Origin: a virus | Lineage: Duplodnaviria > Caudoviricetes | DNA: 64,000 nt | Direction: 5' to 3' (one strand) | Virus record (IMG/VR): IMGVR_UViG_3300023174_000037 | Part shown: positions 36,577 through 46,714 of the stretch, piece by piece | Layout of the letters: every line of letters begins with the position of its first letter | How positions within the stretch are numbered: the first letter of the stretch is position 1 | Program-made: the position numbers and the translations under genes | Notes under the pieces: generated by a model | What the model saw: the letters and a program-made list of their open reading frames with translations, nothing else | Databases searched by the model: none | What the model was told of the DNA's origin: nothing

Positions 36577-36668
36577 TGGTACCCCCGGCGGGAATCGAAC
36601 CCACATGAACCAATTATCTGTTGCTTACGGGATATAAATCCGCCGTTTTACCGTTAAACTACAGGGGC
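36577..36668 (-). tRNA. tRNA-Ile(UAU) with a 22-nt variable region
   Basis: Loop UUUAUAU, A31.C39 mismatch, canonical T-arm, CCA. Confidence 0.8.
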
Positions 36669-36673
36669 AAATT

Positions 36674-36747
36674 TGGTGCTCTAACGTAGAATCGAACTAC
36701 GATTACTGTCATACCAAGACAGAGTTCTGCCATTAAACTATAAGAGC
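36674..36747 (-). tRNA. tRNA-Thr(GGU)
   Basis: Loop UUGGUAU, CCA. Confidence 0.93.
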
Positions 36748-36752
36748 AAACA

Positions 36753-36827
36753 TGGAGCAGGATATCGGGGTCGAACCGATGACCTACACGTTGGCAACGT
36801 GTCGTTCTTCCACTGAACTAATCCTGC
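36753..36827 (-). tRNA. tRNA-Gly(GCC)
   Basis: Loop UUGCCAA, U73, CCA. Confidence 0.95.
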
Positions 36828-36832
36828 ATGAT

Positions 36833-36920
36833 TGGCGGAGAGTATCAGATTCGAACTGATGCGCCTCTTTCGAAACGACAGTTTAGCAAACTGCTGGTTT
36901 AACCACTCACCCAACTCTCC
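36833..36920 (-). tRNA. tRNA-Ser(GCU)
   Basis: Loop UUGCUAA, long V-arm, G73, CCA. Confidence 0.95.
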
Positions 36921-36927
36921 GTTATCT

Positions 36928-37002
36928 TGGTAGCCACGGTTGGGAACGATCCAACGGCCTAACGCTTATCAAGCGTTTGCTCTACCACTGAGCTACGCGG
37001 CT
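36928..37002 (-). tRNA. tRNA-Ile(GAU), atypical T-loop AUCGUUC
   Basis: Loop UUGAUAA, CCA. Confidence 0.92.
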
Positions 37003-37010
37003 ATATTGAA

Positions 37011-37230
37011 TTTGTTAAAGTAGCAGCACCACATTATTGCTGCCATTCACCCGAATTAACAAGCTCGAGCGGGAGTCGGTAAGTTACTTGGGATACCGGT
37101 CCAGTTTAGTCGCCTCAATGGACCCCTGCAGTTTCCCGCAGGGTGGGTGTCGAACCCATCACCTTCTACTGCGTTGGTCCTTCGAAGAAACCTAGACAGC
37201 GTGACTTTCTCTTGCTAACACTCTAACAAA
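37011..37230 (-). ncRNA. Unclassified 220-nt structured RNA between tRNA-Val and tRNA-Ile
   Basis: 11-bp terminal stem, GAAA and GCGA tetraloop hairpins, T-arm-like UGGG-UUCGACA-CCCA; no credible ORF. Confidence 0.7.
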
Positions 37231-37233
37231 ACT

Positions 37234-37309
37234 TGGTACCTGAGACTGGACTCGAACCAGTATCGCTCTCCTTGTAAGGGAGACGTATAACCTCTCTACG
37301 CACTCAGGC
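37234..37309 (-). tRNA. tRNA-Val(UAC)
   Basis: Loop CUUACAA, CCA. Confidence 0.95.
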
Positions 37310-37337
37310 TTTATATTCTCTAAGAACGACCCATGTA

Positions 37338-37416
37338 TGGTCCGAGTAGAAGGATTCGAACCTTCGATCTCCTGCTCCCAAAGCAGGCGGATTAAACCAG
37401 ACTTTCCTACACTCGG
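37338..37416 (-). tRNA. tRNA-Pro(UGG)
   Basis: Loop UUUGGGA, CCA. Confidence 0.95.
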
Positions 37417-37418
37417 AG

Positions 37419-37462
37419 AAAAGAAAAACCACCAAGCTGTCCCCGAAGGCAACAGAAGGTGG
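37419..37462 (-). terminator. Terminator-like hairpin directly upstream of tRNA-Pro
   Basis: CCACC...C-UUCG-G...GGUGG followed by UUUUUCUUUU. Confidence 0.55.
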
Positions 37463-37476
37463 CCGTATTAAAAAGG

Positions 37477-37595
37477 TGAACAAGTCGTTATCACTGCCAC
37501 GCCCGGATATAATTACTCGCTCGGCAAGGGTACGTCACTAGACGGTTAGGAAAGGTAACCCGTGTGCATTTAACACTGCTCAAACAACTTGTTCA
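37477..37595 (-). ncRNA. Unclassified 119-nt multi-branch RNA downstream of tRNA-Met
   Basis: 13-bp terminal stem UGAACAAGUUGUU/AACGACUUGUUCA; inner hairpins GGUUA/UAACC and CGUC/GACG. Confidence 0.6.
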
Positions 37596-37599
37596 TAGT

Positions 37600-37674
37600 T
37601 GGTGGAAATAAGTAGATTCGAACTACTGACCTGCGCCGTATGAAGGCGATGCACTACCGCTGTGCTATATTTCC
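37600..37674 (-). tRNA. tRNA-Met(CAU), probably elongator
   Basis: Loop UUCAUAC, G1-C72 paired, CCA. Confidence 0.85.
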
Positions 37675-37678
37675 AAAT

Positions 37679-37753
37679 TGGCGGTCTGTGGGGGAATCGA
37701 ACCCCCGTAAGTGGATAGACAATCCACAGTAATAACCTCTATACGAACAGACC
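37679..37753 (-). tRNA. tRNA-Asp(GUC), U at position 37
   Basis: Loop UUGUCUA, G73, CCA. Confidence 0.93.
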
Positions 37754-37759
37754 TAAAAT

Positions 37760-37837
37760 TGGAGCAACGGGCGTGATTTGAACACGCGGTTTTACGGATT
37801 TGCAATCCGTTGCATTGGACCACTCTGCCACCGTTGC
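37760..37837 (-). tRNA. tRNA-Cys(GCA)
   Basis: Loop UUGCAAA, U73, CCA. Confidence 0.95.
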
Positions 37838-37844
37838 ATAAAAT

Positions 37845-37921
37845 TGGCTCCCCGTCGTGGGCTCGAACCACGGACATCGACATTAACAGTGTCGCGCAAC
37901 TACCAACTGTGCTAACGGGGA
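37845..37921 (-). tRNA. tRNA-Asn(GUU)
   Basis: Loop CUGUUAA, U1-A72, G73, CCA. Confidence 0.95.
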
Positions 37922-37929
37922 ATAAAAAC

Positions 37930-38003
37930 TGGAGCGGAGTGAGAGAATCGAACTCTCGACCGAAGATTGGAAATCTGCTGTTTTGCCATTAAACTAACCC
38001 CGC
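37930..38003 (-). tRNA. tRNA-Gly(UCC)
   Basis: Loop UUUCCAA, U73, CCA. Confidence 0.93.
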
Positions 38004-38011
38004 AAAATGCT

Positions 38012-38249
38012 TTCTGTCCGTCGTGGTAATTATAGTGTATCAGAAATTTGGTCAGGCTTTACCCCAATTAATCTTTCATCACTTACACCCTCCACCCACT
38101 CGCCACGGACAGAACTCTCGTGTTGCCAACGCTGGTTTGGTCGACCCCATGGATGAACCCATGTCCTCTAATTTAATAGAGAAGAACCACCCTACTGAGG
38201 ACAACTCAGTTTCATTTCCTCTGGGTCAGAGTAGCAGTTGTGAAGCTGC
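38012..38249 (-). ncRNA. Structured leader/ncRNA between a promoter and tRNA-Gly
   Basis: Five short hairpins followed by a 10-bp stem UUCUGUCCGU/ACGGACAGAA enclosing about 80 nt. Confidence 0.55.
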
Positions 38250-38264
38250 ATGTTCAATAATACA

Positions 38265-38293
38265 ATTATACTTGATTATGGTTACAATGTCAA
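38265..38293 (-). promoter_or_regulatory. Consensus sigma70 promoter inside the tRNA array
   Basis: TTGACA-17-TATAAT. Confidence 0.88.
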
Positions 38294-38304
38294 GCATACT
38301 TTTT

Positions 38305-38389
38305 TGGTGCGACTGGCCGGAATCGAACCGGCACACCCGAAAGCGAGAGATTTTAAGTCTCTTGTGTCTACCTATTTCACCACAGTCGC
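38305..38389 (-). tRNA. tRNA-Leu(UAA), long V-arm
   Basis: Loop CUUAAAA, CCA. Confidence 0.95.
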
Positions 38390-38399
38390 ATTTTATCAC

Positions 38400-38476
38400 T
38401 GGTGCCCAAGGAGAGACTCGAACTCTCAAAATACGGCTTCTAAGACCGGCATGTATACCAATTCCATCACCTGGGC
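38400..38476 (-). tRNA. tRNA-Leu(UAG), short variable loop
   Basis: Loop CUUAGAA, 5-nt V-loop, A73, CCA. Confidence 0.9.
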
Positions 38477-38500
38477 CTGAATTTTTAAAGAACAAGCGCA

Positions 38501-38529
38501 ATTGTAGCGTTTATTCTTTATGTTGTCAA
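38501..38529 (-). promoter_or_regulatory. sigma70-type promoter
   Basis: TTGACA-17-TACAAT. Confidence 0.75.
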
Positions 38530-38999
38530 CCGTTAACTATCTTAAGGCCTCTTATTCTGTCTGCTGCATAGCTGGCCGCAAATGCCTGTGGCTTTACTAA
38601 CGGAACAACATTACAGGTGCCTTTGATGTAGCCAATCGCTTGTGCGACTACATTACTGCTGGCATGATGATCATCTGGATTGATATCCAGGTGAACTTCA
38701 ACTGCTCTATCTTCCAGCACTTCGGCAAGTTTCAAGTATAGTTCGCTTACTTTATACACTTCGATCATTAGTCTTGTGTTAGGTTTGTTTACACGATCGT
38801 AATCACGTTCACGTGTAACTTCGCCAAACAATTTACAACCATTGTTACCGTTGATATGAACCACAATGGCCGCAGTATAAATGCCATACCATTGCTTATC
38901 GTGACCTCTGACACGCTCGCTATCCACACCAATATAGATACGTGTGTCTGGGCCTTGCGCTTCTATAAATTGTTTAATGTGTGGGATATCAAACTTCAT
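38526..38999 (-). CDS. RNase H-like YkuK (DUF458) family protein
   Basis: IYIGVDS, RLMIEV, VHLDIN, KPQAFAASYAAD. Confidence 0.8.
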   Translation of the reverse strand: MKFDIPHIKQFIEAQGPDTRIYIGVDSERVRGHDKQWYGIYTAAIVVHINGNNGCKLFGEVTRERDYDRVNKPNTRLMIEVYKVSELYLKLAEVLEDRAVEVHLDINPDDHHASSNVVAQAIGYIKGTCNVVPLVKPQAFAASYAADRIRGLKIVNG

Positions 39000-39027
39000 T
39001 ATTATCTTTCTATATATTAACTACATC

Positions 39028-39119
39028 TGGCGGAAAGCAGAGGAGTCGAACCCCATCCCATTTCTGAGAACCTGGTTTTCAAGGCCAGTCGCAGGACCAT
39101 CCCCGCTGCATTACTTTCC
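39028..39119 (-). tRNA. tRNA-Ser(UGA) with 8/4 acceptor/T-stem fold
   Basis: GGAAAGUA/UGCUUUCC 8 bp, T-stem GGGG/CCUC 4 bp, loop CUUGAAA, V-arm, G73. Confidence 0.85.
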
Positions 39120-39124
39120 ATATT

Positions 39125-39198
39125 TGGCATACCCCCAGGGACTCGAACCCCGACTAATAGTTTTGGAGACTAGTGTGCTGCCATTACACTAGGGGCAT
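39125..39198 (-). tRNA. tRNA-Trp(CCA)
   Basis: Loop CUCCAAA, G73, CCA. Confidence 0.93.
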
Positions 39199-39205
39199 AT
39201 TAAAC

Positions 39206-39280
39206 TGGTACTCGGAAGGGGAATCGAACCCCTCTTCCCGCCGTGAAAGGGCGGTGTCCTAACCGATAGACGACCCGAGC
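39206..39280 (-). tRNA. tRNA-Glu(UUC)
   Basis: Loop CUUUCAC, CCA. Confidence 0.95.
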
Positions 39281-39287
39281 AAAAACT

Positions 39288-39376
39288 TGGTGGAAGTGGT
39301 TGGATTCGAACCAACAATGTTTCTTATGTGGCGGATTTACAGTCCGTTGCCTTCAACCAATTCAGCGCACACTTCC
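39288..39376 (-). tRNA. tRNA-Tyr(GUA)
   Basis: Loop CUGUAAA, long V-arm, A73, CCA. Confidence 0.95.
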
Positions 39377-39381
39377 CAACT

Positions 39382-39457
39382 TGGTGGAGGATATCGGACT
39401 CGAACCGATCACCCCTAGCTTGCAAAGCTAGTGCTCTCCCAGATGAGCTAAACCCCC
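39382..39457 (-). tRNA. tRNA-Ala(UGC)
   Basis: G3.U70, loop UUUGCAA, CCA. Confidence 0.95.
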
Positions 39458-39459
39458 AA

Positions 39460-39657
39460 TTATTTCTTATCTAGCTTTGGTTCTTCATAAACCATTGCTT
39501 CTTTTTCTACATAGACTGGAAAAAATTTCCAACCAAAACTTTTCCAATACTTGTGAATGATATTGTTGATAACAACTGCTGTTACTACAACAACAATAAA
39601 CCCAAGTCCTGTCAAAATTGAACCTGCTAAAAATACTGCTGCTTGATCAATGTCCAT
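39460..39657 (-). CDS. Small membrane protein, 65 aa (MDIDQAAVF...)
   Basis: RBS AAAGGAG; one long hydrophobic helix. Confidence 0.75.
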   Translation of the reverse strand: MDIDQAAVFLAGSILTGLGFIVVVVTAVVINNIIHKYWKSFGWKFFPVYVEKEAMVYEEPKLDKK

Positions 39658-39671
39658 GCTTACTCCTTTAA

Positions 39672-39746
39672 TGGTTGCGGGGGAAGGAATCGAACCTCCG
39701 GCTTCCAGGTTATGAGCCTGGCGGTCTACCGCTGACGTACCCCGCG
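39672..39746 (-). tRNA. Initiator tRNA-fMet(CAU)
   Basis: C1.A72 mismatch, loop CUCAUAA; A29-U41 replaces the first of the three G-C pairs. Confidence 0.9.
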
Positions 39747-39812
39747 ATATTAGGTGTAGGGCTTCCACCTACTCCCACCTCGTTTTAAAGTCCGCGTGTC
39801 CAGGACTTGATC

Positions 39813-40397
39813 TTACATGGTAGGACCATTTCCGTTCTTAAATCCCACCACACCGCCTTCTGCCTCAATACGTTTGATAACGTCTTCAAACAGGATAGGT
39901 GCAAAGTCAGTTTGTTCTACACAAACACAGTGATACCTAGTATCAACAATGTCAGTGATCTTGCCATTGAATCCTGGCAACATGACACGATTGGCATGCA
40001 AGTGTCCGTGGATGTTGACGCCAAAACGACCCAGACTTTCCGAGTGGATAGGAATGTGACTCAGGATCATTCCATTCATAACATGGTAAGCACGAAGTTC
40101 ACGAAAGTGTTCACGGTATTCACTGTCTCTGAAGATATCATGGTTACCACGGATCAACACCTTGTCACCGTTTAACCTGCGCATGATGCCTAAGGCTTTA
40201 CGGTTGATAACAACGTCACCTAAATGATAGACCTTGTCAGTGGGTTTTACCCGTTCGTTCCACGCCTTGACCATAGCTTCGTCCATCTCCTCTGCGGAAT
40301 CCCATGGACGAAGTTTTGTAACACCATCGTTACGTGTGAAGCGGCATACACCTGTGTGTCCAAAGTGCGTGTCGCTTACTAAAAATACACTAGGCAT
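39813..40397 (-). CDS. Calcineurin-like metallophosphoesterase
   Basis: SDTHFGH, HLGD, GNHD, SH, HGHLH. Confidence 0.93.
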   Translation of the reverse strand: MPSVFLVSDTHFGHTGVCRFTRNDGVTKLRPWDSAEEMDEAMVKAWNERVKPTDKVYHLGDVVINRKALGIMRRLNGDKVLIRGNHDIFRDSEYREHFRELRAYHVMNGMILSHIPIHSESLGRFGVNIHGHLHANRVMLPGFNGKITDIVDTRYHCVCVEQTDFAPILFEDVIKRIEAEGGVVGFKNGNGPTM

Positions 40398-40908
40398 CTT
40401 GCCCTCCTTTCTTATCTGTTAAATGCTGTCTATAATCGGCTCTCCAACTGTGAGTCGAATCCTCACTATCGTAAGTCCACCCCAACAAGCGCATCATTTT
40501 ATGCTTGACCAACAAGTTAGGACTACGAAATCTTTCACAATCTCCAAATCCCATCATTACACCTATCTCGCACACTGCACCCGACCTGCAAATGCCAGCA
40601 TGACAGTGAACAACCACATTCATCCGATTTTCCCAGGCATGTTGCAACAATCGGACAAGTTGTTCTGCTTGCTCATCTGTGATGGCAAATTCACTGAGGT
40701 CAATTGTTCGACCGTCACCGGTGGTTGTTACACCTTCTTCTTCTTCTATATCCAAAAACGTAAATTGATGAATTTCTTTAAACGTATGCTTGGGTGTAGG
40801 GAACGCCATGTCGTGGTCTGAAATCTGTATCAGCATACTGTTGGCACCACAATCGTGATGCCTTCCTGTTGCTACATTTTCTAAAGGTATATTTTCAATC
40901 CACGGCAT
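40390..40908 (-). CDS. Cys-based (PTP/dual-specificity) phosphatase
   Basis: HCHAGICRS (HCx5R). Confidence 0.85.
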   Translation of the reverse strand: MPWIENIPLENVATGRHHDCGANSMLIQISDHDMAFPTPKHTFKEIHQFTFLDIEEEEGVTTTGDGRTIDLSEFAITDEQAEQLVRLLQHAWENRMNVVVHCHAGICRSGAVCEIGVMMGFGDCERFRSPNLLVKHKMMRLLGWTYDSEDSTHSWRADYRQHLTDKKGGQDA

Positions 40909-40928
40909 AATTGTCTCTTTCTAACTGT

Positions 40929-40957
40929 ATTATAGCTGATTGGCTATTTTGGGTCAA
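40929..40957 (-). promoter_or_regulatory. sigma70-type promoter
   Basis: TTGACC-17-TATAAT. Confidence 0.8.
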
Positions 40958-40968
40958 CCAACTAATTT

Positions 40969-40986
40969 GTAATACGTTTGTATTAC
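40969..40986. promoter_or_regulatory. Palindromic operator-like site, copy 2
   Basis: GTAATAC-GTTT-GTATTAC, 11 nt upstream of a -35 box. Confidence 0.55.
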
Positions 40987-40988
40987 GA

Positions 40989-41315
40989 TCATGCAGTCAT
41001 CCAGCGTTCCTCTGATTCGAGCACCAAACTTTCTGAACCATCATACTCGTCTATGCGGAACCTGGCACCCACTGGCACCCATTCTACTTGTAAATCTTCT
41101 GCCCCTCCGCAGTATGCTTCAGGATATTTTAACTCCATGTAGGTAAGAATTTTATCAAGTTCTTTGTTTTCAATCCAGGTCACAACACAAGGATCGTAGA
41201 CTAGTTCTTCGATATGGTGCCAAGTATACCAACCAGCACCGTATCCTGGACTTACCAACACAGCTACTCGACCATCACGAATTAATTTATTTGGCAATGA
41301 CATGATTTTCTCCAT
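40989..41315 (-). CDS. Hypothetical protein
   Basis: VAVLVSPGYGAGW...FRIDEYDGSE. Confidence 0.8.
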   Translation of the reverse strand: MEKIMSLPNKLIRDGRVAVLVSPGYGAGWYTWHHIEELVYDPCVVTWIENKELDKILTYMELKYPEAYCGGAEDLQVEWVPVGARFRIDEYDGSESLVLESEERWMTA

Positions 41316-41336
41316 AACACACTCTTATGAATGTGT

Positions 41337-41404
41337 GTATTAAAGCACACTCACCCGAATGGACCTTGTCACCTCCGCCTACTGTCGGAAGTGTGCTTTA
41401 ATAC
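41337..41404 (-). ncRNA. Stem-capped 68-nt RNA cassette related to the 55-nt spacer RNA
   Basis: 16-bp stem GUAUUAAAGCACACUU/GAGUGUGCUUUAAUAC; shares GUGAGUGUGCUU with 36241-36295. Confidence 0.55.
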
Positions 41405-41510
41405 GCTGTGATTTTTCGCTCCACAAAAGGAGTTTCATCCCACAGGCCGCCCGTTTGTGCTTGTTTATAGTGTAGCACAGGACCTCGTTTCCTGCAACCA
41501 CTTTGTGCTG

Positions 41511-41675
41511 TTAGTTTACACTAAACGTTGGTGCTTTTGCTAACGCTTGGTGATACACTCTGGCACGTTCGAACTTATCTTGAATAAGTTTCTGAAGTTG
41601 TTCTTTATTCAAAACAGCTTCATAAGCCTGTTCAATGACACGTTCATTTAATTTTGTATGATCTATCTTTTCCAT
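41511..41675 (-). CDS. Small protein, 54 aa (MEKIDHTKLNERVIEQAYEAV...), first gene after the attenuator
   Basis: Hand-translated; RBS AAAGGA. Confidence 0.65.
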   Translation of the reverse strand: MEKIDHTKLNERVIEQAYEAVLNKEQLQKLIQDKFERARVYHQALAKAPTFSVN

Positions 41676-41687
41676 TTTTCCTTTTCT

Positions 41688-41781
41688 AAAAACAAAAAAC
41701 CCCAGGGTTTTTAATCCTAGGGTTCTTTAAGTTTGAGTAGTATCTGCTATTTAAGCGTACCCACTTCCCTTCAAGAACCCT
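41688..41781 (-). terminator. Attenuator: mutually exclusive antiterminator (2:3) and intrinsic terminator (3:4)
   Basis: Seg2 AGGGUUCUUGAAG (41769-41781), seg3 CUUAAAGAACCCUAGG (41716-41731), seg4 CCUGGGGUU plus UUUUGUUUUU. Confidence 0.8.
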
Positions 41782-41906
41782 GAGCTAATATAGCCCTCTG
41801 GTGTGCGATCTAATGATAGACTATTGTTCGCAAACCAAGAGGTCAGCGTCAAGCATACCTGTTTGGCTATGGAACTAAATTGTCTATGTAAAGATAGCGA
41901 TTTCAT
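41751..41906 (-). CDS. Putative attenuator leader peptide, 51 aa
   Basis: MKSLSLHRQFSSIAKQVCLTLTSWFANNSLSLDRTPEGYISSGFLKGSGYA; stop lies in the antiterminator loop. Confidence 0.65.
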   Translation of the reverse strand: MKSLSLHRQFSSIAKQVCLTLTSWFANNSLSLDRTPEGYISSGFLKGSGYA

Positions 41907-41962
41907 TTTTGTTTCTGGTTTCCTAAAATTTTACAAACAGCATCATTGCTGTCTATGTGTTT

Positions 41963-41991
41963 ATTATACAGTTATTTAGTCTCGTTGTCAA
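41963..41991 (-). promoter_or_regulatory. Consensus sigma70 promoter of the leader/tRNA operon
   Basis: TTGACA-17-TATAAT. Confidence 0.88.
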
Positions 41992-42046
41992 CCTCTAAGT
42001 TTGTTTTTTTATCTTTTTCTTAAAAATATTTTTCAACTAAGTGTCA

Positions 42047-42075
42047 AGTATACACTGGATGTCATTCAAGGTCAA
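42047..42075 (-). promoter_or_regulatory. sigma70-type promoter
   Basis: TTGACC-17-TATACT. Confidence 0.65.
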
Positions 42076-42083
42076 CCAGCCGT

Positions 42084-42110
42084 AAAAAAAGACACCTAGG
42101 TGTCTTTTTA
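42084..42110. terminator. Bidirectional intrinsic terminator
   Basis: AAAAAGACAC-CTAG-GTGTCTTTTT. Confidence 0.75.
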
Positions 42111-42129
42111 TTTCTAGTAGAGTTAACTA

Positions 42130-42855
42130 TTAGAATGCTTTGCCTACTGAAAAGACTGCGGCATTGCGATATAGCTTTTGACCATTCACGGTGTTGGCTG
42201 TGTTGAATGTGCTAGTCTTGTCGCCGTTGGTGTAATACTTAGCGGCCAAGTTCCAACCTTGTAGGTTGTAACCTACACCAAAATTGTAATCATTGTAGTC
42301 CAATGAAGAACTGTTAGCAACATTAGTCTTACCTGCGTGAGCAAGCAAACTGATCTTTGATCCAGCGATTGGATATGCTACATCAGCTTGGTAGTATGCT
42401 GTGCCTTGTGCATTGGCTGTACCAAAATAACCATTGCCTAGTGTACGATTATACTTGACACTAACTGGACCATAACCTAGACCAACATAACCTTCGTATG
42501 TGTCAAAGTTTGAACCTGTCTTAGCTGAAGTAGTAGAACGTGGATAAAAATAGTTATAAGAACCAACATCAAGTGTTAGGCCTTTATAAATGTCTTTCTT
42601 CCAACCCGCATATACATCAGACTCAACACCCGAACCGTTTGTGTAAACTTGTGAGCTTACTGAACTGTTCCAGTTACCGATATAGAAACCGCTGGAGTGA
42701 TTGTAGTCAATGCCGCCTTGGACAGCAGGAGCATTTTGGGATTGACTGATGCCGCGGAAACGGTAGTCACTTGTCAAGCCTAAATTGCCAGATACTTGAG
42801 CATGAGCAGAAGTAATGCCAGCCAATACGAATAATGCTAATAGTAATTTCTTCAT
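42130..42855 (-). CDS. TorF-type putative outer-membrane porin (TIGR02001-like)
   Basis: Signal peptide; SGNLGLTSDYRFRGISQS, PAVQGGIDY, GFYIGNW, C-terminal F. Confidence 0.88.
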   Translation of the reverse strand: MKKLLLALFVLAGITSAHAQVSGNLGLTSDYRFRGISQSQNAPAVQGGIDYNHSSGFYIGNWNSSVSSQVYTNGSGVESDVYAGWKKDIYKGLTLDVGSYNYFYPRSTTSAKTGSNFDTYEGYVGLGYGPVSVKYNRTLGNGYFGTANAQGTAYYQADVAYPIAGSKISLLAHAGKTNVANSSSLDYNDYNFGVGYNLQGWNLAAKYYTNGDKTSTFNTANTVNGQKLYRNAAVFSVGKAF

Positions 42856-42974
42856 TTGTTTTATTTCCTTTTAAAAGTAATGCTTAGAATAATATTTAGT
42901 GGGTTTCACGAGTGGCCTGTAATTTTTGCACACTTTCCTACCACTTTTATAGTTAACGGCATAGTTAACTGGCT

Positions 42975-43000
42975 AAAAAAGAGCCCACCGAAGCGGGCTC
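42975..43000 (-). terminator. Intrinsic terminator after the tmRNA
   Basis: GAGCCCGC-UUCG-GUGGGCUC-UUUUUU. Confidence 0.88.
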
Positions 43001-43345
43001 TTGTTATTTTCTGTTACGAGGTATAACTACCCTATCGCGGTGATTAAACTGCGAAAGATGTGGCTTTCACTGTACGAGCAGAGAACTTGACGTTCTTACC
43101 TGAAACAGTTACTTCGCCTGTAGATGTTTTTGCATTTACATTATTTGCTTGATTTACAGTCATCGCCTACTGTGTTGCCGTCTCTATTATCTCACCCTGT
43201 CGAAACCATGGCAGGCCCATTATGAAGTATACTCACGTTTCTTATGTCTCTGTTGGCTATGTGCCAACCGAATATACTTTATGGTGGACCTGGCGGGAGT
43301 CGAACCCGCGTCCAGAATGCCTTCACTTTGAAGGGATTACAACAA
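43001..43345 (-). ncRNA. ssrA: Circularly permuted (two-piece) tmRNA
   Basis: Acceptor piece ...GCGGGUUCGACUCCCGCCAGGUCCACCA (3' end 43282) precedes the coding piece starting GGGCCUG (43218); G3.U70; tag ORF 43133-43044. Confidence 0.92.
43225..43279 (-). ncRNA. 55-nt structured RNA, copy 2 (tmRNA intervening sequence)
   Basis: 10-bp closing stem, GUUGGC/GCCAAC hairpin, AGAGACAUAAGAAACGU. Confidence 0.8.
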
Positions 43346-43349
43346 TTCT

Positions 43350-43589
43350 TTAATACACTGCAACAGGTATTGCGGGACTAAATCCTGCTAGTAGCGACTG
43401 ATAACCGTTTGCGCTTTCGGTGCTACTCCACATTCTAACATTTGTTGTAGTATCAGCAGTGTTGCTCCATATGTATACCTGTCCGTTGGTTGTTCCTGCA
43501 GTTGTTTGTGCGCTGATATAGCTAGCTAACTGGGAAGTTTCAGCCTCAGTGAGCACTCGAGGTACAGTTATTTCTGTAAAATATGCCAT
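43350..43589 (-). CDS. Hypothetical protein
   Basis: RBS AAGGAG; lies between csp and ssrA. Confidence 0.75.
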   Translation of the reverse strand: MAYFTEITVPRVLTEAETSQLASYISAQTTAGTTNGQVYIWSNTADTTTNVRMWSSTESANGYQSLLAGFSPAIPVAVY

Positions 43590-43644
43590 TTAAAAACTCC
43601 TTTTTTAGTATGTGCTATCAAATACAAATAGCACTATTAACTAC

Positions 43645-43848
43645 TTATGCCGGCACAATATTTGATGCCTGCTTGCCTTTTGGGCCCTGAACCAAGTCAA
43701 ATTTTACCACTTGGTTTTCTTTTAATGTTTTAAATCCATTAATATTAATTGCTGAAAAATGTGCAAATACATCCTCGCCGCCGTCATCTGGTGTAATGAA
43801 TCCAAAACCTTTTGCATCATTAAACCATTTTACTTTACCTACTACCAT
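43645..43848 (-). CDS. Cold-shock domain protein (CspA family)
   Basis: [15 protein letters not shown] (RNP1), DVFAHFSAI (RNP2), KGKQASNI. Confidence 0.97.
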
Positions 43849-43882
43849 ATATTACTACTTCCTTTTAAATTAAACATGAGTG

Positions 43883-44062
43883 CTAATTATAGCCTTTTAC
43901 AACATTTTTGTCAACCTTGGGATTACCTTTTGCATGGGCATCTTGATGTGATTGCCTCATGCGATCACGTTCGGTTGGCAACTTTCCACAACCCAACCGA
44001 TCCCATTCTTTTTCAGAATAGTAATACTGGTCAACGGGTTTTTTCTGCTGCTTCACGATCAT
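43883..44062 (-). CDS. Hypothetical protein, 59 aa
   Basis: Hand-translated; YYYSEKEWDRLGCG. Confidence 0.55.
   Translation of the reverse strand: MIVKQQKKPVDQYYYSEKEWDRLGCGKLPTERDRMRQSHQDAHAKGNPKVDKNVVKGYN
43886..43914 (-). promoter_or_regulatory. Consensus sigma70 promoter of the csp-orf79-ssrA unit
   Basis: TTGACA-17-TATAAT. Confidence 0.85.
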
Positions 44063-44077
44063 ACTATTTAGCTTGTT

Positions 44078-44154
44078 TGGTGGGCCAGGTGGGATTCTAA
44101 CCCACGATCAATGCTTTATGAGAACACTGCTTTAGGACACTAAGCTACTGGCCC
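44078..44154 (-). tRNA. tRNA(CAU), probably Ile2 (lysidine type); degenerate D- and T-loops
   Basis: GGGCCAG acceptor, loop CUCAUAA, T-loop UUAGAAU, CCA. Confidence 0.75.
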
Positions 44155-44162
44155 GGATACGT

Positions 44163-44191
44163 AGTATAGCACTAAGGCTCGTAGTTGTCAA
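44163..44191 (-). promoter_or_regulatory. sigma70-type promoter directly before tRNA(CAU)
   Basis: TTGACA-17-TATACT. Confidence 0.75.
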
Positions 44192-44543
44192 GGAATTGTT
44201 TGAGATTTCCGTATAAATTTACCATAACTGCTTCTCGGCTGCCAAAAAATACAATCTTTTTAGGTATGCCTTTGACAGCATGAATGTAGTAAGGCATTTG
44301 CATTTTACGGTCTAATTTTAGAATCAATTGTTTATTAAACGTATGTGGATCGTCGATACTGTATGAGTAATGTTCTAGATCTAGGTCTTCTGAAAGTGTT
44401 TGATAACCAGTGCCGGTCAATCTCATGCCACCGTTACGCCGCAAATTAAACCACCAACTGGGAACGGCACTTTCTACACTAATCCGTTGTTCGTCAGGTA
44501 ATAGTGCAATTAGCTCTTCTGTGAGTTTTCTTTTATCACGCAC
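44172..44543 (-). CDS. Hypothetical protein
   Basis: ORF in operon. Confidence 0.75.
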   Translation of the reverse strand: MRDKRKLTEELIALLPDEQRISVESAVPSWWFNLRRNGGMRLTGTGYQTLSEDLDLEHYSYSIDDPHTFNKQLILKLDRKMQMPYYIHAVKGIPKKIVFFGSREAVMVNLYGNLKQFLDNYEP

Positions 44544-45532: not shown

Positions 45533-45720
45533 TTGTTACTCCTTTTTCTACATTCTTCTTGTACCTTAACAGGTACATCAGGATGCCATCCCCCGATGAG
45601 AATCCTGCAATCGTACTGCACAACAACTACATTGCCTTTACTGCTGGGCCAAAATGCCAAGACCAATGACCCAATTGCAATACTAACTACTACTGCGGCC
45701 CAGACAATATCCTTAGCCAT
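45529..45720 (-). CDS. Small membrane-anchored protein
   Basis: N-terminal hydrophobic helix; YDC...C. Confidence 0.7.
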   Translation of the reverse strand: MAKDIVWAAVVVSIAIGSLVLAFWPSSKGNVVVVQYDCRILIGGWHPDVPVKVQEECRKRSNK

Positions 45721-46714
45721 TTAACACACCTTTGTATGTTTCGTTCATCCAACGACCAAACGAGTCGGCACTTTCACTACATTTGTTCAATTCATACTTG
45801 CCACAGAACTGCATAAAACGCACACCAACTTGGCCAATGTCTTTGTGACTGATCTGCTCACGTATGGCAGCATCTACTGTATCTTTAATAGATTGTGGTT
45901 GTGCTGTCAGATCAATCAGTTCTCGATTACGTTCGTAATCATCTAACACTCTATGCTCTACACCATCTGGATCACTCCAGCGTTGCAGCATCATGTTGTT
46001 CCAATTATATCCTCGAGTCTTGCGATCTTTAAACGCCTCTTGGAGACCAACTTTATTTTTTGTTCCTTTAGTTCGAACACCTGGATAAGCCGAAAACACA
46101 TTGTCACTGCTGTCTCCTCGCATACACTTTTCAAAAAGTAGCCACTCCGGATTGGGAATTGTTTTTGGTTCTTTGGTTTTTTTATCAATGACGGCCTTTC
46201 CTTTGGCATCAAAGATTCCATCTATAGTGATTAGTTCGTCTGTGATACCATTATATTGTTTGACATTGGGTGCTACCAATTGAACAAAGTCTGTGTCACT
46301 GCTGATAACAATATGTTCATCTTGGGGGTGTAGTGCAATCCAGCGAGCGATGATATCGTCGCCTTCTGCTGTAGGACATCTTACAACTGAGCAGTTGGTT
46401 CTTTCACTCAAGTATTTAGTCAAACTATCATAAGTTTCCCAAAACATTTTATCTTCATCTGCTTGTGCTTCTGTCAGCGCAGCCCGGGCTACAGCACGGT
46501 TGTTTTTGTAGGGTTTATAGTAGTCTTTGCGCCAACTGCGTCCTTCCAAGGCAAATACCACATGATCAGCTTCAAAACGTCTAGCGACCTTGTTGGCACT
46601 CATTAGGGTTACATGGAGGGCAAATCCAATTTTCTCCCACGTGTCAGCGGCACGAAAAGCACCGTGTCTAGCACGAAAGAACATATTAGCCGTATCTATA
46701 AGAACATATTTCAT
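45713..46714 (-). CDS. 5'-3' exonuclease / RNase H (T4 rnh, flap-endonuclease family)
   Basis: LIDTANMFFR, AEGDDII, SSDTDFVQL, GDSSDNV. Confidence 0.92.
   Translation of the reverse strand: MKYVLIDTANMFFRARHGAFRAADTWEKIGFALHVTLMSANKVARRFEADHVVFALEGRSWRKDYYKPYKNNRAVARAALTEAQADEDKMFWETYDSLTKYLSERTNCSVVRCPTAEGDDIIARWIALHPQDEHIVISSDTDFVQLVAPNVKQYNGITDELITIDGIFDAKGKAVIDKKTKEPKTIPNPEWLLFEKCMRGDSSDNVFSAYPGVRTKGTKNKVGLQEAFKDRKTRGYNWNNMMLQRWSDPDGVEHRVLDDYERNRELIDLTAQPQSIKDTVDAAIREQISHKDIGQVGVRFMQFCGKYELNKCSESADSFGRWMNETYKGVLNG

Follow-up and report, generated by a model that had tools for sequence, protein, structure and literature searches.

The present analysis concerns a 64,000-nt stretch of viral DNA, referred to here at its full length as the window, in which positions 42975-43344 of the minus strand carry a circularly permuted (two-piece) tmRNA gene, as identified by ARAGORN, by Rfam and by direct reading of the strand. 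A preliminary description, made from the letters alone, had proposed such a gene, and the proposal is borne out by an ARAGORN call of a permuted tmRNA at 42953-43374 on the minus strand, with a predicted tag identical to the one described before, and by two Rfam models scoring above threshold: RF04321 tmRNA_permuted (123.2 bits, threshold 47, E 1.3e-23, 43344-43101) and RF01850 beta_tmRNA (119.2 bits, threshold 84, E 1.1e-35, 43394-43101). The call lies within an array of about 30 tRNA genes that ARAGORN places at 32947-44154 of the window, all on the minus strand. Two ARAGORN calls in the array are themselves unusual, a tRNA-Ser with anticodon ACT (33235-33324) and a 92-nt tRNA-Ile with anticodon TAT (36577-36668).

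All parts of the tmRNA gene are read on the minus strand, beginning with the acceptor piece (43282-43344). This comprises the 5′ strands of helix 2, a T-arm (43309-43293) recognized by direct reading, ARAGORN and Rfam alike, and, both on direct reading, the acceptor-stem 3′ strand CAGGUCC (43292-43286) and the sequence ACCA (43285-43282), i.e. the discriminator A followed by an encoded CCA. A related gene (L134, 776-1160) has an acceptor 3′ end of ...CUCCAAAAAG in which CCA is not encoded, and post-transcriptional addition would be needed there. Next comes an intervening segment at 43219-43281 that forms a stable stem-loop, is hypervariable among relatives and would be removed on maturation; direct reading (43281-43219) gives it the same 63 nt by which the two pieces had been reported to be separated. 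The coding piece (42975-43218) contains GGUUUCGAC, the helix 2 3′ strands, the PK1 hairpin (43173-43156), the tag frame, helix 5, a trailer hairpin and a terminator. Its 5′ acceptor strand GGGCCUG (43218-43212) starts with G1 at 43218, and G3 pairs with U, so that the G3.U70 pair of the preliminary description is present in the window. Helix 2 had likewise been said to pair across the pieces, and both of its parts, CAGGGUG/CAUUCUG and GCAAC/GUUGU, form on direct reading. The tag frame (43044-43133) runs from the resume codon GCA (43133-43131) through 29 codons to the stop codon UAA (43046-43044); the 29-aa tag previously read after the resume context UAAAU-GCA is returned unchanged by ARAGORN, and GCA aligns with the UAAAUGC of the beta_tmRNA consensus. 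Helix 5 (CGCAGU/ACCGCG, 43036-43053), whose loop contains the stop codon, and a post-tag hairpin GGGUA-GUUA-UACCU (43019-43032) both show covariation among relatives. The gene ends in an intrinsic terminator (42979-43002), a palindrome scored on the plus strand with a U run to about 42975 and with compensatory stem changes in relatives. The terminator mentioned in the preliminary description is thus present at 43002-42979, but the boundary drawn there at 43001 cuts into its stem.

The flap endonuclease (FEN) encoded at 45713-46714 shares just about 50% identity with the PA5oct protein and 47-48% with those of Rak2-like jumbo phages. No close relative was found among cultured phages at the DNA level, where only the T-arm region matches, and near-identical DNA is present in freshwater or lake metagenomes of at least three studies, with about half of the sampled words found in two more. 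Because of the FEN relationship, the metagenome matches and the lack of a close cultured phage, the window is assigned from its sequence to a freshwater jumbo phage that is uncultured and has PA5oct and the Rak2-like phages as relatives; the preliminary description had not placed the gene in a phage. When IMG/VR was scanned with two patterns and the matches were passed to ARAGORN, a family set of 33 loci was obtained, representing 29 distinct genes, the window's included. These loci share one tag family of 28-33 residues, mostly ending [F/L]AV, and at one of them (L168) the tag is exactly equal to that of the window. They are syntenic, with FEN, ORF123, often a cold-shock gene, the tmRNA and a porin-like gene in this order, and their FEN proteins share 82-97% identity with that of the window, so that the genes are orthologues within a single phage lineage. 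Its complete members are 344 kb and 355 kb long, with terminal repeats. A cellular source for the signature was sought with a 26-nt pattern that covers the resume codon together with tag codons 1-5, and in one genome for each of 185,579 prokaryote species this gave 17 matches, none of them a tmRNA.

The secondary structure is supported by covariation. RNAalifold applied to the 29 genes recovered the T-arm, acceptor stem, helix 2, PK1 hairpin, post-tag hairpin and terminator, with compensatory changes in 31 of 60 predicted pairs. Such changes affect four of the five T-arm pairs and occur in the acceptor stem and helix 2 as well, and the G.U at acceptor position 3 (alignment columns 102/246), the identity pair for alanine, is found in 29/29 family genes. 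In the PK1 hairpin an A-U pair is replaced by G-C in 13 genes; for a second PK1 stem there is a weak 5-bp candidate without covariation. Helix 5 is closed by a C-G, A-U or U-A pair, matching a Phe/Leu codon of UUC, UUA or UUU, and a distant member (L044) has a different helix 5 that is fully compensated; throughout the family the stop codon sits in the loop of this helix, as in canonical tmRNA. The middle pair of the post-tag hairpin is U-A in 15/29 genes, C-G in 12/29 and G-C in 2/29. A further hairpin within the tag frame, AGAAC/GUUCU (alignment columns 411-423), keeps its pairing through G.U in variants.

The tags of the family start A-[K/N/T]-[A/T]-S-T, have a core GEVTVS-[G/A]-K-x-[V/I/L]-KF and a variable middle, and end S-[F/L]-A-V. 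They are 28-31 residues long except in two distant members, one with 28 residues ending LAA and one with 33 ending AFA. The tag of the window departs from the canonical ssrA degron in that it ends SFAV rather than LAA and is without an ANDE motif or an AANDENY-like SspB site. A long tag with a non-canonical ending, as reported for this locus before, is no artefact of a single sequence, because it is conserved across the phage lineage. Taken together with the intact structure, the findings indicate that the window carries a real, conserved and probably functional phage tmRNA with an unusual tag. In the wider related jumbo-phage group, with FEN proteins 58-97% identical, tags are of three kinds: canonical with 10 residues, of 23-31 residues and ending LAA or VAA, or of 28-33 residues and mostly ending [F/L]AV. 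There is also a sister set of phage permuted tmRNAs with long tags on contigs of 200-383 kb (L002, L021, L047, L073, L119, L129 and others), the tags of which have 22-31 residues, start A-[K/N]-[A/T]-[S/N/D]-T-F-[E/D]-[Y/F] and end LAA, IAA, VAA or VA.

Upstream of the tmRNA on the minus strand lie a cold-shock domain protein of 67 aa (43645-43848; Pfam CSD, E 5e-29) and ORF79 (43350-43589), a small protein with no Pfam family whose gene ends 5 nt before the acceptor piece. Directly downstream, on the same strand, is a Gcw_chp (PF09694) outer-membrane porin-like protein with a signal peptide (42130-42855). This arrangement recurs, with the cold-shock gene upstream of the tmRNA and on the tmRNA's own strand in 12 related loci, ORF79 homologues of 56-70% identity immediately upstream in four relatives, and the porin-like gene in its downstream position in at least 12 relatives. 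A sigma-70-type promoter, TTGACA-17-TATAAT, with 12/12 hexamer matches lies upstream of the cold-shock gene (43886-43914, minus strand). The window has no good promoter directly before the acceptor piece, a position at which the relative L044 has one, and a search for terminator-like sites on the minus strand over 42800-44300 found none, the sole match being the palindrome at 42979-43002 that is scored on the plus strand. It is plausible from this layout that a single transcript from the sigma-70-type promoter covers the cold-shock gene and ORF79 and may extend through the tmRNA precursor. Freshwater metatranscriptome contigs from four studies, whose ends are not to be equated with RNA ends, cover parts of the tmRNA, much of this evidence coming from relatives. 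One contig of 62 nt equals 43282-43343 with zero differences; another of 229 nt (X17) covers 43051-43220, including most of the tag frame, with three differences; and the stretch 43144-43201 has very deep coverage. The same contigs provide no coverage of ORF79, and the pattern of a covered tmRNA beside an uncovered ORF79 therefore argues against carried-over DNA.

Rates of change differ markedly along the gene. The message part (PK1 and tag) is 88-93% identical to the window in most relatives, and the tRNA-like parts often just 59-87%. In the locus L170 (10053-10437) the tRNA-like half and the intervening segment are strongly diverged, with a message half of about 90% identity and a FEN that is 96% identical. 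This is the opposite of the pattern in bacterial tmRNAs, in which the tRNA-like half is usually the conserved one, and the alignments suggest that in this lineage the tRNA-like half is either exchanged as a module or evolving fast. In 27 of the 28 relatives the alignment columns of the intervening segment are just 18-58% identical to those of the window, and the length of the segment ranges from about 20 to more than 130 nt. The window's own segment has a stable fold, at -16.7 kcal/mol (z -4.9), and is a paralogue, 85% identical, of the spacer between tRNA-Phe and tRNA-Lys at 36235-36300 on the minus strand. Both stems are compensated between the two copies, with z about -4.5 to -4.9, and the pair looks like a reusable processed spacer element.

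Partner proteins were looked for in the window and in related phages. The preliminary description had listed no smpB in the window, and in agreement with this none occurs among the best 25 of 28 Pfam families matched by 36 ORFs of 100-260 aa. SmpB was also found in none of ten related phage records, three of them complete, and since the phage lineage is without SmpB, that of the host must be used. Proteases present a different picture. Genes for ClpX, ClpP and ClpA are seen in relatives, not within the 64-kb window, and all three are encoded by each of G006 (complete, 344 kb, FEN 91% identical), G007 and G001. The ClpP of these relatives is a true ClpP (E 1e-81 in G006), and the ClpA matches E. 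coli ClpA over its full length (E 1.5e-175 in G006). Their ClpX is likewise a true one, with a zinc finger as well as GYVG and IGF loops. The RKH loop, which in E. coli ClpX helps in recognition of the ssrA tag, reads RKQ in G006 (L213), RKS in G007 (L214) and KKH in G001 (L215). Lon was considered as an alternative protease and rejected, with none found in five related phage records searched, the complete ones of which carry ClpX, ClpP and ClpA.

Clp genes were already known in Rak2-like jumbo phages (PMC6102473, PMC7824862), and a specific link between them and the long tag was rejected, because relatives with short tags carry them too: G016, with a 10-residue tag, has ClpX and ClpP, and G012, with a canonical tag and a FEN 78% identical, has ClpP. 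The narrower idea that ClpX is tied to the [F/L]AV end is weakened by the same G016. Among four sister long-tag phages with LAA or VAA ends, ClpP is present in all four, ClpA in three and ClpX in none, and in Xanthomonas phage XacN1 neither ClpX nor ClpA was found. Engineered ssrA variants ending AAV are still substrates of ClpXP, if slower ones (PMC9382460), and because of this it is unlikely, by analogy, that proteins bearing the phage tag escape proteolysis altogether, one of the outcomes raised in the preliminary description. The presence of phage ClpX, ClpP and ClpA in complete relatives makes a different protease route, another of the outcomes raised there, possible.

We consider it likely that the locus encodes a functional, phage-borne, beta-type permuted tmRNA that is processed by the host, depends on host SmpB and appends a tag that is likely to be a Clp-type degron. 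Transcription of the precursor would probably start at the cold-shock gene's promoter, and host tRNA-processing enzymes would cut the transcript, with RNase P predicted to act at G1 (43218) and 3′ trimming to stop at the encoded CCA (43282). After loss of the 63-nt intervening segment two RNAs would remain, the acceptor piece with about 62 nt and the coding piece with about 245 nt, joined through base pairing in the acceptor stem and helix 2. Host AlaRS could charge this molecule through G3.U70, and host SmpB with EF-Tu would deliver it to stalled ribosomes. Translation would then resume at GCA, so that Ala and 29 encoded residues, 30 in all, would be appended, ending SFAV. The RNA would likely serve to prevent ribosomes from being tied up during infection and to label incomplete proteins. 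The hydrophobic C-terminus is most likely still a degron of the Clp type, possibly read by phage ClpXP or ClpAP.

Several alternative explanations were weighed. If the long frame were kept mainly as RNA, its extra 60 nt or so would represent a structured insertion, and the peptide beyond its first and last few residues would be without function. Third codon positions vary hardly more than the first two (variable columns 12/10/13 by position; pS just 0.17), pN/pS rises to 1.14 over codons 18-29, and the mid-tag AGAAC/GUUCU pairing is maintained through G.U, all of which speak for such an insertion. The frame has nevertheless stayed open in 29 distinct genes with all indels being multiples of three, the Ser at codon 11 is written both as TCN and as AGT across the family, substitutions are conservative (V/I/L, F/L) with the terminal S[F/L]AV fixed, and pN/pS is 0.51 over codons 1-17. 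The distant members L015 and L044, moreover, arrive at similar tag residues from different nucleotides. A dN/dS argument was tried as proof that the tag is translated and set aside, since the ratio over the whole tag is 0.78 and not decisive. Conservation of the frame mainly as RNA appears quite unlikely, and we conclude from the alignment that the long frame is probably translated, with modest constraint on the peptide, and that part of its conservation lies at the RNA level, as the unusually conserved synonymous sites show.

Another view is that the RNA is a decoy that soaks up host SmpB or competes with the host tmRNA, its own tagging being secondary or absent. This would fit a phage lineage without SmpB in which the tRNA-like domain is the fast-changing part, and there is a parallel in mycobacteriophage DS6A, from which a tmRNA-like domain without a tag frame is known, such molecules inhibiting tmRNA (PMC4131195, PMC11915505). 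A decoy would need no frame, however, yet a frame altered by in-frame indels only is found here in every distinct gene, together with a canonical resume context, a stop codon placed in the loop of helix 5, and a retained G3.U70 and CCA end, and we regard a decoy as very unlikely. The gene might also have been copied from a host as a passenger that does nothing for the phage, an idea with some appeal in that integration at tmRNA genes is common and prophages contain pieces of such genes (PMC9004378). Against it, synteny of the locus is maintained throughout a jumbo-phage lineage of lytic type, the structure is intact with many compensatory changes, and no tmRNA carrying the resume and tag signature turned up in the prokaryote genomes scanned, making a passenger origin most improbable. 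A bolder proposal accepts the function and goes further, with the long tag as a phage-specific degron that co-evolved with phage Clp proteins, including the changed ClpX RKH loop, which reads RKQ or RKS in the two nearest relatives with complete or near-complete genomes. Truncated proteins made during infection would on this view enter a tagging and degradation route that is under phage control and orthogonal to host ClpXP and SspB, and the tRNA-like half would be swapped rapidly to fit or escape hosts; this is conceivable and for now rather unlikely.

The reading preferred here, a working tmRNA that relies on the host for its processing and delivery, can be compared with several known systems. 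It resembles the betaproteobacterial two-piece tmRNA (RF01850) in gene order, helix 2, tRNA-like domain and the resume context UAAAUGC. The RF01850 molecule is bacterial, however, with a tag of about 10 residues that has ANDE and ends LAA, whereas the present one is from a phage, with 29 residues, no ANDE and a FAV end, and the 3′ hairpin of the model is displaced in the window gene by the longer frame. Two-piece tmRNAs of phages have been described, a set of 18,146 phage genomes yielding 53 unique ones (PMC9004378), and the tmRNA database of 2025 holds 79 phage sequences (PMC11915505). Melnitz and the pelagimyophages (PMC9004378) likewise have a permuted tmRNA in lytic phages, often beside tRNA genes, but the Melnitz tmRNA is alpha-type with a glutamine riboswitch and those of the window lineage are beta-type. 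The mycobacteriophage Bxz1-type tmRNA and the DS6A gene consisting of a tRNA-like domain only (PMC4131195) are also phage-borne and must also use host SmpB; they differ in being one-piece or without a tag frame, in having actinobacterial hosts and in a sequence unrelated to that of the window.

For the tag itself the nearest precedent is in mollicutes. The tag of Mesoplasma florum is longer than that of E. coli, ends NYAFA and is read by Lon (PMC9382460), so that mollicute tags are also long with a hydrophobic end other than LAA and offer a precedent for tag and protease changing together; the family member L044, ending AAFA, resembles them. Mollicute tmRNAs are, in contrast, one-piece and bacterial, in cells without active ClpXP, whereas complete relatives of the window carry ClpX, ClpP and ClpA, with no Lon found in the five related phage records searched. 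As far as the literature was searched, three features appear to be new: the conserved family of 28-33-residue tags mostly ending [F/L]AV, the diversification of tags within one jumbo-phage group, and the fast-changing tRNA-like half. Normally tmRNA tags are short, end LAA and are read by host ClpXP. Jumbo phages of this lineage come equipped with tRNAs, a tmRNA and Clp proteases and lack SmpB. If the tag is read by a phage protease, this would be a natural orthogonal degradation system and would show the takeover of protein quality control by a large phage; if it is not, it would be a clean case of the evolutionary freedom of a tag sequence outside the cell genome.

Beta-type permuted tmRNAs that are not annotated were also noted in two cultured phages whose hosts have one-piece tmRNA, Xanthomonas phage XacN1 (AP018399.1; L121, 1482-1902) and Pseudomonas phage PA_L9 (PP869205.1; L122, 1479-1899). 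Their tags have 12 residues and end LAA, as against 28-33 residues and mostly [F/L]AV in the window lineage. In PA_L9 the hypothetical CDS PAL9_106 overlaps the tmRNA call by a few bases, and the Pseudomonas phages SM1, PaMx31, UF_RH6 and FBPa45 have matches to the same region.
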